Of a stretch of 64,000 nt of DNA, positions 38,001 through 44,000 are shown in pieces. The first letter of the stretch is position 1; each line of letters starts with the position of its first letter. The stretch comes from a virus (Duplodnaviria; Heunggongvirae; Uroviricota; Caudoviricetes): IMG/VR virus record IMGVR_UViG_2721755646_000011. One strand, written 5' to 3'. Made by a program: the position numbers.

Positions 38001-41000
38001 CTTGCAGGCGCATCGCGCGACCTTCAGGAACCAGTTCCCCCCATTGAGAAACAGCAGATGGATCAACACCAGCAGCTTTCGCTACTTTGGCTTTCGTCCC
38101 ATAAAAATTAATTACGTCTGATTTAAACATCACCCCTCCAAAGTTGAGTTTTCTCAATAGTAATCACTCAAGGAATCTCAAGTCAAGGGTGATTAAGATA
38201 TCTAAATATGAACGAGAAAACTTTAGGTCAACGAATTAGAGAAAGACGCAAACAGGTTGGTTTAAGTCAAAACGATTTAAGCAAAGCCGCTGGCGTATCT
38301 GGCTCATCAATTTCACTATGGGAAAGCGACCATACAGCCCCGCGCGGGCAAAATTTGCATCGCCTGGCTGAGGTATTGCAATGTTCACCAACTTGGATAC
38401 TGTTTGGTGACGAGGATAAAACACCAGATCCACCAGTTGCACTCAACAGCGCCTTAGACTTATCGGAAGATGAGTTGGAGATGTTGCGATTGTATCGCGC
38501 ACTTCCAAAATCAGAGCAGCAAGCACAAATCAGCGAACTCCGTGCCCGCGTTGAGAATTTTAATCGCCTATTCACCGAGCTACTAGAAGCTCGCAAACGT
38601 AACAAACATCAGTAACCCCCTTCACAAATTTTAAAGCCTTACATTTCAATGTATTGGCTTTATTTTGCATTAAATATTGAGTTTTCTCATTAAAAATACT
38701 TGACCAACATTCATGAGAAAACTAAATTACCACCCATCAAGACACCGCACGGTGTTCTCAGCAAACAGTTCCGCTACCCGGCGTTAAGGGGAAATGAGGT
38801 CAGCATGGATACTATCGATCTTGGCAACAGCGAATCTCTGGTATGTGGCGTGTTCCCCAACCAGGACGGCACGTTCACCGCGATGACGTATACCAAAAGC
38901 AAAACGTTTAAAACCGAAAATGGTGCCCGTCGCTGGCTGGAAAGAAACTCAGGTGAGTGATATGGATTTCGACACAATCATGGAAAAGGCTTATGAAGAA
39001 TACTTCGAAGGTCTTGCCGACGGCGAAGAAGCTCTCAGCTTCAACGAATTTAAACAGGCGCTTTCCAGCTCGGCAAAATCTAACGGCTGATAAGCGAAAC
39101 AGCACCGCGAGGAATCAGTATGCAGAAACGAGAACCCGTCATCATCGCACCAGACTATACCGATGATGAACTTTATGAGTGGATGCGCCAGAAAATTAAT
39201 GCAGCGCAGGATCTGAAATGGGCCAATGAAGCCAGGGCTAAGCAGGCTGAAAAACTGTCCGCTCTGGAGCAGGATATCACCAATCTGGAAAAAGCAGCGG
39301 CATTAAGCATTGCCAGAATGATTACATACCCGCGTTAATAGCTAACCAACGAAGCTAAGGTTGGTAATTAAGTAGTTCTCCACGGGTGAGGTGGAGTGCG
39401 TGCGCCGGACGCGGGTGAGCATCCGGCACTGACAGTTTACTGAAAGGATATTTCCCTGAAAAGTCAGACCATAACGCGAAAGCGCACGGCGAGGTAGCTG
39501 GTTCATAGATAGCCTGTCGTTAAATTTTCGTCGACCGTGCGCTTCCGGTTGTGGCAACCCGCGAAATGGTGCGGCGGTAAGTATGGCGGGGTTATTTCTT
39601 CCCCGTTGAGGACACCGGGTTGTCAGGTTGACCATACGCTTAAGTGACAACCCCGCTGCAACGCCTTCTGTTATCAATTTTCTGGTGACGTTTGGCGGTA
39701 TCAGTTTTACTCCGTGACTGCTCTGCCGCCCTTTTTAAAGTGAATTTTGTGATGTGGTGAATGCGGCTGAGCGCACGCGGAACAGTTAAAGCTAAAAACA
39801 GCGTTATGGGTGATTCTGTATTCCGGCGTTAATTGTTAACTGGTTAACGTCACCTGGAGGCACCAGGCACCACATCACAAAATTCATTGTTGAGGACGCG
39901 ATAATGGAAACGTCACTACCAAACGTTAATACGTCTGAAGGGTGTTTTAATATTGGTATTCTGCTCAGTAACCGGGAGTTTACTGAAGACGCCATCAGGA
40001 TGAGAAAATATGAGCCTTATCTTCTCAATGATAATTCCATACTCTCCAGAATTGCCCTTCTTGAACTTGGCATTTTCGGAGGGCAGCAGTGAGTTCAGCG
40101 TTTGCACTGATGATGACGGTTTTTCTTATAACAGGTGAGCCACAGAATGTGATTACCGGAATTTATGCCAGTAAAGAATCCTGCCATCAGGCAAGAGACG
40201 AGCAAAAAATTTCCGGTGAATGTCTCCCGTTAAACAAAGTATCGCTGTACCTGAATAACGAAATACCGGCTGGATAACCCGCCAGCCGTATTAACGCCAT
40301 ACCCGTTGATTAAGCATGCCAGCAATGGCAGGGATTCGTACAACCTTAAAATAGTTATGAGGTTTATCAATGAGCACTGATAAAGAAGAAATTGCACTGT
40401 ATTACGAAGCCAAAAATGACAAAGTCAGAAAACGCCTTGGGATTAAAGGCGGTTTTTACTGGCGCACAGCAAAAAAATTATCGGTTGCAATATCACGGGG
40501 TGTTGTCGCAATGGACGATGCTGGATTTGACGAAGAGGATTTCAAAAAACCTGTTCGCGTGAATTTGCCCATTGTTAATGACCTGCCGCCTGAAGGTGTG
40601 TTCGATACTGAATTCTGCAACCGCTATGAAAAAGGCGGGGAAGATGGCATCACAATGATATTTATAGCGCCTTCCCCCTCAGTTCAGGACAAACCAGCCA
40701 GCTCTGACAATACCAACGTCAATGGCGAAGACATGGCTGAGATTGAGGATAATATGCTCCTGCCGATTTCCGGTCAGGAACTGCCCATTCGCTGGCTTGC
40801 GCAACATGGCAGCGAAAAACCGGTAACGCACGTTTCACGGGAAGAACTTCAGGCATTACATATCGCACGAGCTGAAGAACTGCCTGCTGTTACTGCCCTG
40901 GCTATTTCCCACAACACAAAGCTGCTCGACCCGCTGGAGATTCGCGACCTTCACAAACTGGTACGCGACACAGACAAAGTTTTCCCTAATCCCGTTAATT

Positions 41001-44000
41001 CCAGTCTGGGGTTAATGACTGCTTTTTTCGAAGCATACCTGGACGCTGACTATACCGATCGAGGTCTGCTGACAAAAGAGTGGATGAAAGGAAATCGTGT
41101 TTTACGCATCAGCCGCACGCCATCCGGCGCTAATGCTGGCGGAGGAATTCTTACCGATCGCGGTGAAGGTTTTGTCCACGATGATGCGTCAGTAGAACGT
41201 GACGTTGCCGCTGGCGTTCTGGCCCGTTCAATGGACATCGATATTTACAATCCACATCCGGCACACGCCAAACGCATTGAAGAAATCGTTTCAGAGAATA
41301 AGCCGCCCTTTTCTGTTTTTCGTGACAAATTCATCGCCATGCCTGGTCACCTGGATTATTCCCGCGCGATAGTGGTTGCGTCCGTGAAAGAAGCACCAAT
41401 TGGTATCGAGGCTACTCCCCACCGTGTTACCGAATATCTGAACAAAGTACTGACCGAAACCGACCATGCCAACCCTGATCCAGAAATCGTGGATATTGCC
41501 TGCGGTCGCTCCTCTGCTCCAATGCCGCAGCGTGTAACAAAAGAAGGAAAACAGGATGATGAAGAAAAACCGCAGCCATCTGGCGCAATGGCAGATGAAC
41601 AGGCAACGACTGAAGCAGTGGAACCGGATACAACTGAACATAATCAGGACACGCAGTCGATGGATGCTCAGCCACAGATAAATTCTGTTGATGCGAAATA
41701 TCAGAAACTGCGGGCAGAACTCCATGAAGCCCGGAAAAACATTCCGCCCCAAAATCCTGTCGATGCAGACAAATTACTGGCTGCCTCTCGCGGAGAATTT
41801 GTTGAAGGGATTAGCGACCCGAATGATCCGAAATGGATTAAGGGGATCCAGACCCGCGATTCTGTGTACCAGAATCAGCCAGAAACGGAACAGAACGACC
41901 AGAAAGCGGAACAGAACAGCCCAAATACGCAACAAAACGAGCCAGAAACGAAACAACCTGAACCAGTAGTGCAACAGGAACCGGAAAAGATCTGCACCGC
42001 CTGCGGTCAGAGGAGTGGCGGCAACTGCCCTGATTGTGGCGCGGTGATGGGCGACGCAACATACCAGGAAACATTCGATGACAAGAACCTGGTTGAAGTT
42101 CAGGAAGACGATTCGGAGAAAATGGAAGGCGCTGAACATCCACACAAGGAGAATGCTGGCAGCGCTCAGGACCACGCCAGCGATAGTGAAACTGGCGAGA
42201 CGGCAGATCCCTTAATTACGGTGAACGGTCATCGCATTATCACATCCACCAGCAGGACGTGTGACCATCTAATGATCGACCTTGAAACCATGGGAAAAAA
42301 TCCTGATGCCCCGATTATCTCAATAGGTGCAATATTTTTCGATCCGCAAACCGGAGATATGGGACCGGAATTTAGTAAGACTATCGATCTGGAAACTGCT
42401 GGCGGAGTCATTGATCGGGACACCATTAAATGGTGGCTTAAGCAATCACGCGAAGCGCAATCTGCCATTATGACCGATGAAATCCCGTTAGATGATGCAC
42501 TGTTACAATTGCGGGAATTTATCGACGAAAACTCCGGTGAATTTTTTGTTCAGGTCTGGGGAAATGGAGCCAACTTCGACAACACGATTTTGCGCCGTTC
42601 ATACGAACGGCAGGGGATCCCCTGCCCGTGGCGTTACTACAACGATCGCGATGTACGCACAATCGTTGAGCTGGGGAAAGCCATAGACTTCGATGCCAGA
42701 ACTGCTATCCCATTCGAAGGTGAGCGCCACAATGCGCTGGATGACGCTCGTTACCAGGCAAAATACGTTTCAGCTATCTGGCAAAAACTGATCCCGAATC
42801 AGGCTGATTTTTAATGTTCAACCCCGGTCGTTGCCCACCAGCTATAGTGGCGGCGACCATGATTAGCGAACGACGCTCATGGCAAGACTTATTCTGCTCA
42901 CTGAGTGGGCAAAAGAGGAATTCAGTGAACCGGTCCCTACTCCGAGTACGTTAAGTAAATACGCTAAAGCCGGAATGATATTTCCTCTCCCCAAAAAAGT
43001 TGGAAGACGCTGGCGAGTGGATCCGCAAGCTCGCTTTGTCGGAATGGTAAACAAGCCGGAGGTGATCGCCACAGATCACCCTGCTTTGAAGAGGATACTG
43101 GAAGATGGCGCGCCCGCGAAAATATAAAACCGATGTTCCGGGATTATCTCCGTATTTTGACAAAAGAAATAACAAAGTTTACTGGCGTTACAGGCATCCC
43201 ATAACAGGCAAAAATCACGGTCTCGGCAGTATTGACCAGAAACTGGCAGAAACTATTGCAGCAGAAGCGAACAGCCGTCTTGCCCGGCAGCAAATGGAAC
43301 AAATGCTCAGTCTGCAGGAGAAAATTATTAGTGATACCGGCGGTTCATCAACCGTTACCATTTTTCTGAATAATTACAGAAAAATTCAACAGGAAAGATA
43401 TGAAAACGGCGAGATCAAACTCAACACGCTGAAACAGAAAGCGGCCCCTCTCAGGGTATTTGATGAACGTTTTGGCACCAGACCGTTAGATGCCATAACC
43501 GTAAAAGATGTGGTATCAGTACTGGAAGAGTACAAGGCCAGAGGACATAACAGAATGGGACAAATTTTCAGGAAAGTACTGATCGATGTTTTCCGGGAAG
43601 CTCAGCAAACGGGCGATGTCCCGCCAGGCTTTAACCCTGCAGAATCTGCAAAAAAACCGCAGGTGCGGATATCAAGACAGCGACTGACTTTTGATGAGTG
43701 GATGATGATTTATAACGCAGCGGAAAAGGATGGTTACTTTTTACAGCGCGGTATGCTGCTGGCACTGATGACAGGCCAGCGCCTTTCAGATATTTGCAAA
43801 ATGCAATTTTCGGATATCCGGGATGGTTATCTTCATGTCGAACAGCAAAAAACAGGAACCCGGATTGCCATCCCTCTGGCTCTGCGTTGCGATAAATTAA
43901 ATCTCACCCTGGATGATGTGGTGTCATCCTGCCGCGATTGCGTTCTTAGTCCGTGGCTATTGCACCACCATCACGCGAAAGGGACAGCTAAGCGCGGCGG

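Follow-up and report, generated by a model that had tools for sequence, protein, structure and literature searches.

A RecE-Type N-Terminal Region Joined to a Predicted 3'-5' DEDDh Exonuclease Domain in the Early-Left Operon of a Lambdoid Prophage

Introduction

RecE and RecT of the Rac prophage, the workhorse of recombineering, are encoded in a lambdoid early-left operon upstream of the excisionase and integrase genes (xis-int), in the order recE, recT, ralR, rcbA, xisR and intR. The nuclease domain of RecE occupies residues ~600–866, and the function of the N-terminal two-thirds of the protein is unknown (PMC11611040). Described here is a gene at 40370..42814 (+ strand) of IMG/VR virus record IMGVR_UViG_2721755646_000011, a 64,000 nt stretch of tailed-virus (Caudoviricetes) DNA that is referred to as the window. 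Its product of 814 amino acids (aa) has a RecE-type N-terminal region and ends in a nuclease domain of another family, that of the DnaQ-like DEDDh exonucleases.

Members of that family include DexA of phage T4, which switches between dimer and tetramer and needs W152 and D169 on DNA containing 5-hydroxymethylcytosine (5hmC), and the E. coli protein EcD (HAK9828821.1), which digests T4 (5hmC) DNA, spares unmodified double-stranded DNA, and confers protection on cells that express it from a plasmid (PMC12153337). The founder of the corresponding Pfam family (PF16473) is Rv2179c of Mycobacterium tuberculosis, by description a chromosomal, single-domain exoribonuclease, which has the DEDDh catalytic chemistry in common with the window protein but differs from it in not being part of a phage-encoded fusion. 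The DnaQ-like nucleases of lambdoid phages and the DexA homologues of E. coli were described in 2025 (PMC12315714, PMC12153337); some of the former are counted as members of recombination (Rec) modules and others are found near int (PMC12315714). In the literature searched, there was no statement of the RecE N-terminal region as a mobile module that occurs with a PD-(D/E)XK nuclease (plus RecT), with a DEDDh nuclease (and no annealase) or with nothing, and a search joining Rv2179c with prophages returned no paper.

Results

A RecE-Family Protein with an Exchanged Nuclease Domain

The gene is a single open reading frame (ORF) with an ATG start, its coordinates including the stop codon, as given in a preliminary description that had been made from the sequence alone. 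It is 100% identical to the RefSeq coding sequence WP_000102168.1, annotated as 'exonuclease', of E. coli O157:H7 PV15-279, and both start and stop agree. Full-length, undamaged alleles are known at 82–88% DNA identity and, together with the ratios of nonsynonymous to synonymous substitution (dN/dS) of 0.11–0.31 in the folded modules (see later), these argue that the ORF is not a product of chance.

No recognizable motif had been noticed in the ~500 N-terminal residues, a view that did not survive comparison with the databases. Pfam family PF06630 (Exonuc_VIII) covers aa 56–189 (E 4e-34), the NCBIfam RecE equivalog NF007259 aligns aa 1–617 with model positions 1–603 of 877 (1093.2 bits, which for the whole protein is under the curated equivalog cut-off of 1269), and BLASTP matches aa 58–617 to residues 50–592 of Rac RecE, taken from a K-12-type genome, at 75% identity, zinc ribbon included. 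Past residue 592 of RecE, BLASTP found no similarity to the window protein. DNA and protein homology to Rac recE both terminate at window position 42216 (aa 617), which is the border of the RecE nuclease domain. The C-terminus of Rac RecE matches the PDDEXK-like family PF12684 (E 4e-28), and in the 814-aa protein Pfam gave no match to this family. Since the RecE homology ends where the PD-(D/E)XK domain starts, the sequence comparisons identify the protein as a RecE-family scaffold in which a DEDDh domain of predicted opposite polarity stands in place of the 5'-3' PD-(D/E)XK nuclease. The likeness to RecE, extensive as it is up to aa 617, covers only the RecE portion of unknown function (PMC11611040), and the protein has no full-length homologue that is well characterized.

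Several modules can be distinguished along the gene, all on the + strand. The N-terminal head (aa 1–57; 40370..40540) is variable, with at least two alternative forms in the family; that of the window protein recurs in representatives including P0123, P0124 and P0130, and cannot be aligned with residues 1–49 of Rac RecE. It is followed by the RecE-type N-terminal core, or N-core (aa 58–402; 40541..41575), which is recognized by Pfam, NCBIfam and BLASTP alike, and by a first acidic linker (aa 403–465; 41576..41764) with 12 D+E against 5 K+R, which is probably disordered (predicted local distance difference test score, pLDDT, below 50). The mid-module (aa 466–537; 41765..41980) consists of a conserved 21-letter motif and then a Q/E/P-rich repeat, and is highly identical in Rac RecE and in the allele of phage Tritos. 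At the DNA level, Tandem Repeats Finder places the repeat at 41870..41956, with either 3.8 copies of a 21 nt period or 2.0 copies of a 42 nt period, encoding aa ~501–529. Next come the four cysteines of a zinc ribbon, C542-x2-C545-x7-C553-x2-C556 (41993..42037), a motif present in Rac RecE too, for which the Pfam DZR match is weak (E 0.068). A second acidic linker (aa 566–617; 42065..42220), with 16 D+E against 3 K+R, ends at the RecE recombination junction, aa 616/617, and the DEDDh domain (aa 618–814; 42221..42811) completes the protein. Both the zinc ribbon and the acidic, repeat-like linker of the preliminary description are therefore real features, the latter resolving into two acidic stretches with a genuine 21/42 nt DNA repeat between them.

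Compared with Rac RecE, the window protein has in common the PF06630 region, the helical core (see below), a 15-letter motif, the zinc ribbon and the acidic linkers, and the genes of both lie in a lambdoid early-left operon upstream of xis-int. They differ in the nuclease, which is PF12684-like in RecE and DEDDh in the window protein, in the first ~57 residues, and in one additional 42 nt repeat unit that appears as a 14-aa insertion, opposite a gap in the BLASTP alignment. None of recT, ralR and rcbA, which lie downstream of recE, is found downstream of the window gene.

Structure prediction, which had been proposed for the N-terminal region, was informative for one part of it. When aa 1–470 were modelled with AlphaFold2 from a 12-sequence alignment, only aa ~270–380 were predicted with confidence (pLDDT 70–92), the mean pLDDT of the model being 54; predicting aa 215–385 alone gave a worse result (pLDDT 48), and that model was discarded. 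The confident part corresponds to a conserved helical subdomain (aa ~265–380; 41162..41509), which was also delimited by its invariant columns and by a profile match in the Tritos protein. The invariant columns of the family concentrate in this subdomain, just after an invariant SGxNAGGGxxTDR motif, and the subdomain forms the universal core of the whole family. Foldseek comparison of the N-region model with BFVD gave nothing at E ≤0.001, and a profile search of the PDB sequences with the helical core gave no match. In P0136, P0140, P0150, P0158, P0160, P0191, P0268 and P0269, the first half of the N-core (window aa ~60–240) is matched twice in tandem, at residues ~50–240 and ~280–520, which points to an internal duplication of a ~180-aa subdomain.

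The DEDDh Exonuclease Domain

The nuclease was originally recognized as DnaQ-like rather than of the lambda Exo/RecE fold, and this is confirmed. PF16473 (Rv2179c-like) matches aa 633–804 with 226.7 bits (cut-off 27) and E 2e-67, over profile positions 2–177 of 177, and the DEDDh set is complete, with D637-x-E639 in Exo I, D737 in Exo II and H787-x4-D792 in Exo III. Residues D637, E639 and D737 align with D7, E9 and D119 of DexA; the alignment with DexA reaches residue 162, short of D169, and H787 and D792 were assigned by the H-x4-D motif and its conservation in all 18 aligned family members. The full catalytic pentad is kept in 17 of 18 aligned relatives. The domain is apparently active and, going by the characterized members of its family, which attack DNA or RNA at the 3' end, would have a 3'-5' polarity opposite to that of RecE. 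One relative of 752 aa, P0146, which also joins the N-core to a DEDDh domain, has exchanged E for K in Exo I ('VDLKTMG') and D for A in Exo II ('SFANVIL'), and may be a catalytically dead variant.

The sole solved structures reached by sequence search were those of T4 DexA (PDB 8kel and 8ken, E ~1e-7, with 6.7e-8 for 8kel). DexA and EcD belong to the same Rv2179c-like family as the window domain, with the catalytic D, E, D, H and D in line, but the window domain is only ~25–30% identical to DexA over the aligned part and is without its extra loops. DexA, and EcD as it was tested, are stand-alone proteins of ~190–227 aa, whereas the window domain makes up the C-terminal quarter of a much larger protein. 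The equivalent of DexA W152 is Tyr757 (HMMER and MAFFT), at a position that varies between Y, C, H, V, W, R and S in the family. In the window motif PLDDAL, either D709 or A710, depending on the alignment, lies opposite the tetramer-forming D90 of DexA, where EcD has Ala. The EcD sequence begins M-I-D-T-E-T, which is the catalytic Asp-x-Glu motif (read from the cloning primers in PMC12153337), and its termini (MIDTET...TIPETY) differ from those of the window domain (MIDLET...NQADF), so that EcD is a different allele. An attempt to trace the EcD gene by the same primers gave no match in the window; the lone match to a viral contig (L003) was due to chance, the contig being an unrelated one with a portal gene.

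A Mosaic Family

A search of 1.84 billion cluster representatives (50%-clustered library) with the N-core (aa 57–402) retrieved only 147 proteins, and the match lay nearly always at residues ~50–400. The homologue lists obtained with the N-terminal region, and likewise those from a profile built on distant N-cores, were dominated by truncated copies from E. coli and Salmonella, and served for source names and a shallow alignment. Of the 84 representatives with a length of 450 aa or more, 20 carry a RecE-type nuclease, 14 a DEDDh domain and 50 neither. Apart from two direct RecT fusions and one DUF3799, Pfam recognizes no other domain in the last class, which corresponds to the nuclease-less 'RecE-2' (PMC12315714), although some of its members may be fragments. 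RecE-2 resembles the window protein in its N-core and in its place just before xis-int, but has no recognizable nuclease domain, while the DEDDh domain of the window protein is intact. From these sequences, the RecE N-region is seen to be modular, paired with the RecE nuclease, with a DEDDh domain, or with neither. The zinc ribbon is found in only 5 of the 84 representatives, which marks it as a lineage-specific accessory and rules it out as a family-defining trait.

In one of the RecT fusions (P0121, 703 aa), the RecE N-region, comprising N-core and mid-module up to residue 527, is joined to RecT (PF03837, residues 528–678), the nuclease domain being deleted; a second fusion of the same kind is present among the 50 nuclease-less representatives.

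Alleles also vary at the other end of the protein. At the equivalent locus, with the same order of dicB, ydfD, exonuclease gene, xis and int, phage Tritos encodes an 823-aa protein with ~95% identity to the window protein over the whole part that starts at aa 466, but its first ~460 residues cannot be aligned with those of the window protein and contain no match to PF06630. What is retained is a ~115-aa helical unit, detected in the Tritos/YdfE-type N-terminus by the N-core profile (E 2e-24). A comparison with ydfE of the Qin prophage had been suggested earlier, and the locus is indeed the same; however, K-12 ydfE (L011:4079-4999) is 99% identical to the Tritos-type N-terminus and is cut by IS2 after codon 255, so it is a truncated Tritos-type allele with an N-terminus mostly unrelated in sequence. 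YdfE is thereby ruled out as a remnant of a window-type protein, and the K-12 reference genome is left without an intact copy at this locus. Another damaged copy is that of PPompW_EH1846, which is frameshifted.

Annealase Genes Accompany the RecE-Nuclease Form but Not the DEDDh Form

The helical core was used to fetch 65 loci, one genome per species, all from Enterobacteriaceae except for one bin labelled Veillonella, and these were assigned to classes by phmmer with single seed sequences. Of the 36 loci with a RecE-type nuclease, 30 were scanned, and every one of the 30 has a RecT-family gene (PF03837) immediately downstream. The 20 DEDDh loci are instead followed by Exc (8), DUF4224 (10), DUF1233 (1) and integrases (17), and the 130 same-strand ORFs found within 3.5 kb upstream of them encode repressors and YdaS-like, Rrf2-like, DUF1482, DicB and DUF1391 proteins. 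Pfam detected no annealase family at any of the 20, whether in the 3.5 kb upstream or in the ORFs downstream, in a scan that covered same-strand ORFs of at least 60 aa and that annealase families outside Pfam would escape. Nine loci are of the type with neither nuclease, several of them directly before xis-int. The contrast between 30/30 loci with recT and 0/20 with an annealase indicates that the unit of evolutionary exchange is the PD-(D/E)XK domain plus recT on the one hand and the DEDDh domain on the other.

The 20 species-level loci with the DEDDh fusion are spread across Enterobacteriaceae genera; the core has diverged to 33–47% identity, yet all copies are intact and the position of the gene is unchanged. 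The bin mentioned above (L026, JAGZPX010000007.1, a metagenome-assembled genome labelled Veillonella parvula) carries an Enterobacteriaceae-type gene with N-core and DEDDh domain, after which come an ORF the size of an excisionase gene (83 aa) and an integrase, and is most likely a binning contaminant rather than a genuine extension of the host range.

Selective Constraint

Values of dN/dS were calculated by the method of Nei and Gojobori against three full-length alleles and RecE. They are low in the N-terminal head (aa 1–57; 0.13–0.18), the N-core (0.15–0.31), the mid-module (0.11–0.18) and the DEDDh domain (0.15–0.24), and higher in acidic linkers 1 (0.53–1.35) and 2 (0.63–0.91). The folded modules, that is the N-core, mid-module and DEDDh domain, are under purifying selection. 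Within one allele pair, the synonymous divergence varies several-fold among modules, as expected for recombinational mosaics.

Stand-Alone Relatives, Prevalence and Names

A tblastn search located the DEDDh domain in 695 phage records; in most of them it forms a stand-alone gene of ~180 aa. The closest are gp34 of Salmonella phage epsilon34 and gene 030 of coliphage mEp235 (56–59% identity over ~90% of the domain), which sit between the genes for a single-stranded DNA-binding protein (SSB) and the anti-RecBCD protein Abc2, beside an annealase of the Erf/Rad52 type. Like the window gene, these belong to early-left operons of temperate lambdoid phages; they differ in encoding single-domain proteins of 182 aa, where the window domain is fused to the RecE N-region, and genes for an annealase, SSB or Abc2 are absent from its neighborhood. 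A further stand-alone homologue, of 190 aa (L006:3991-4563, E. coli GZ2408P), closes the early-left operon of an e14/CPS-53-like prophage with the gene order ymfK, yfdP, yfdQ, yfdR ... exonuclease, PrtN.

Of 5,426 complete E. coli genomes, 4,089 (~75%) contain at least 80% of the DEDDh-domain DNA, with a median of two copies and a maximum of eight, and 1,251 contain the entire window-type gene to the same extent of at least 80%. The gene is also present in sequenced phage genomes, namely Tritos and vB_Eco-type records. Identical or nearly identical copies (P0001-P0120) are variously named 'RecE family exodeoxyribonuclease', 'exonuclease', '3'-5' exoribonuclease', '3'-5' exonuclease' and 'exodeoxyribonuclease VIII', and the RecE and ExoVIII names imply a 5'-3' nuclease domain of the PD-(D/E)XK kind, which is absent from the window protein.

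Operon and Prophage Setting

The window is DNA of E. coli O157:H7 and, from 35133 to 44399, is collinear with the ompW-integrated prophage of O157:H7 PV15-279 at 98.9% identity. At the head of the early-left region is a gene for a DicA-like repressor of 135 aa (38208..38615, +; HTH_3 and Phage_CI_repr), annotated dicA in the collinear phage PPompW. It is followed, within 38805..40277 (+), by a ydfA-like gene (DUF1391), ydfB and ydfC, which were identified from the collinear RefSeq locus (L001) and Pfam, and then by the gene for the small RNA DicF (39680-39731, +; Rfam RF00039, 76.7 bits), dicB (39904-40092, +) and a ydfD-like gene (DUF1482; 40089-40277, +), the last two known from the annotation of the same locus and Pfam. 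With the antisense RNA DicF lying between ydfC and dicB, a full Qin-type dicBF cell-division-inhibition cassette stands upstream of the exonuclease gene. Directly downstream are xis (42879-43127, +; Pfam Exc) and int (43105-44235, +; Arm-DNA-bind_1 and Phage_integrase). In K-12, the dicBF operon has a lambda-PL-like promoter, is repressed by DicA and contains ydfA, -B, -C, -D and -E, its characterized members being DicF, DicB and YdfD only (PMC10448788). By gene order and similarity, the exonuclease gene closes an early-left operon of Qin type, lambda-PL-like and DicA-controlled, and is immediately succeeded by xis-int, in keeping with the exo/recE position ascribed to it at the outset. A separate promoter was looked for in front of the gene, and the one candidate, a 9/12 consensus match at 40325-40352, was no better than expected from shuffled sequence.

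The early regions of the window prophage encode RusA, a Q antiterminator, a DNA methylase, DUF968, DUF551, DUF977 and DUF1627 proteins, P-like and DnaT/O-like replication proteins, YdaT and Cro, and Pfam found no annealase of the RecT, Erf, Red-beta or Rad52 type in them. Apart from the replication genes, the only other DNA-transaction enzymes found in the prophage are the N6/N4 DNA methylase (27910-28968, −) and the Holliday-junction resolvase RusA (30361-30735, −), both in the late-early (nin-like) region.

Homology to the PV15-279 prophage stops at 44399, after the integrase, and is followed by the low-GC, effector-rich stretch of a second, tandem prophage (44400-64000). This encodes NleG effectors at 45535-46185 (−) and 48466-49113 (+), an IpaB/EvcA-family protein (47692-48282, −), an IS66 transposase (51216-52754, +), an NleF-like protein (53720-54289, −), an OspG/NleH-like kinase (54355-55275, −), a tail fibre (59717-61030, −) and a J tail-tip protein (61849-63972, −).

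Discussion

Taken together, the comparisons make it very likely that the window gene is a widespread prophage gene under purifying selection, forming the last cistron of a PL-type operon without an annealase partner, and that its product combines the RecE N-region with an apparently active DEDDh exonuclease of the DexA/Rv2179c type.

What the protein does can be stated with much less assurance. An early enzyme of the lytic phase that processes DNA ends in the 3'-5' direction, in which the RecE N-region supplies a nuclease-independent function and which does not form a classical exonuclease/annealase pair, is given about an even chance. The gene would probably be expressed mainly once the DicA-like repressor is lifted, that is, upon prophage induction and during lytic growth, by analogy with the K-12 work on the homologous operon. 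The C-terminal domain would then degrade DNA from free 3' ends, trimming 3' tails or flaps or resecting the 3' strand of linear DNA, be it that of the phage or of the host, and the N-region would contribute the nuclease-independent function of RecE, perhaps by targeting DNA ends or a host partner, or by tethering ends. With no annealase encoded alongside, the protein would not work as a SynExo pair in the way that RecE does, and might work by itself, together with host functions, or with annealases that co-resident prophages supply. The location of the most similar stand-alone homologues, at 56–59% identity, within Rec modules favors such a role. Several points weigh against it. Exonucleases of 3'-5' polarity usually inhibit homologous recombination in E. 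coli (PMC12315714), so a pro-recombination role is not the default; the absence of an annealase weakens the analogy with RecE; the E. coli family member that has been tested, EcD, was reported as an anti-T4 nuclease and not as a recombination enzyme (PMC12153337); and the DNA substrate is a prediction, as members of the family such as Rv2179c act on RNA.

The activity of EcD suggests another role, that of an 'HREX'-type anti-phage nuclease in superinfection exclusion, in which the DEDDh domain would selectively degrade the modified, 5hmC-type DNA of incoming T-even-like phages and the RecE-type N-region might direct it to the ends of entering linear DNA. This seems unlikely. It would suit the digestion of T4 DNA and the plasmid-borne protection reported for EcD (PMC12153337), the membership of the window domain in the same DexA/Rv2179c family, the position of the gene next to xis-int at the prophage end, and its retention in very many E. 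coli genomes in up to eight copies each. PADLOC also registered a match to a CRISPR-associated DEDDh model, but a weak one (E 1.7e-5), and no defence-system effector at a meaningful score. The operon context argues otherwise, the gene belonging to a PL-type operon whose K-12 counterpart is kept repressed in lysogens (PMC10448788), with a promoter-like site of its own that is no better than chance. Tyr757 stands where DexA has W152, which is reportedly required for 5hmC recognition, albeit at a variable position; EcD differs in sequence and was tested as an isolated domain; and the closest phage homologues belong to Rec modules. Neither the features that the paper calls essential nor the operon context supports a defence role.

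An RNA substrate appears quite improbable. The protein would in that case be a 3'-5' exoribonuclease or oligoribonuclease that trims, for example, phage or host RNAs, or clears short oligonucleotides or nucleotide signals, during lytic growth. The Pfam family takes its name from the M. tuberculosis exoribonuclease Rv2179c, many copies are called '3'-5' exoribonuclease' by NCBI, and the DexA dimer has been overlaid on the human oligoribonuclease REXO2 (PMC12153337 supplement), which has a Tyr at the same position as the window protein. However, the experimentally characterized proteins closest to it in sequence, T4 DexA and EcD, are both DNases; on its RecE scaffold, the domain takes the place of a DNA exonuclease; and stand-alone homologues of the domain are found among genes for DNA recombination. 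Very improbable is an evolutionary leftover, a chance fusion left after deletion or recombination had taken away the RecE nuclease domain and recT, and carried along by defective prophages with no selected function, for although many lambdoid prophages of O157 and K-12 are defective, K-12 ydfE and the PPompW_EH1846 copy are broken and P0146 has lost two catalytic residues, all three folded modules are under purifying selection, the 20 diverged loci (33–47% core identity) are intact and constant in position, the catalytic residues are kept in 17/18, and the gene occurs in phage Tritos and vB_Eco-type records.

Returning to the 3'-5' end-processing enzyme with its RecE N-region, its gene is very common in E. 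coli prophages and was already annotated; because it is so common and its database names are inconsistent, a clear description should be useful for annotation. It also bears on the claim that E. coli DexA homologues are anti-T4 nucleases, since at least many of these belong, as whole genes or as domains, to early-left operons of prophages or to Rec modules. The DEDDh form occurs without RecT and the classical form always with it, so the task of the N-region is separable from that of the nuclease and annealase. A more general proposal, rather unlikely as it stands, sees in the RecE N-region a portable module, nuclease-agnostic, that occurs in nature coupled to exonucleases of either polarity or to none; it could, for example, bind DNA ends or a host partner. 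If so, the form coupled to DEDDh and lacking RecT would constitute a single-protein system in its own right, either a recombination or repair initiator that exposes 5' instead of 3' single strands or an exclusion nuclease targeted to the ends of incoming phage DNA. Window-type proteins would then be ready-made, natural chimeras for the study of N-region function, from which the role of the ~600 N-terminal residues of RecE might be learned, and why full-length RecE boosts linear-linear recombineering.

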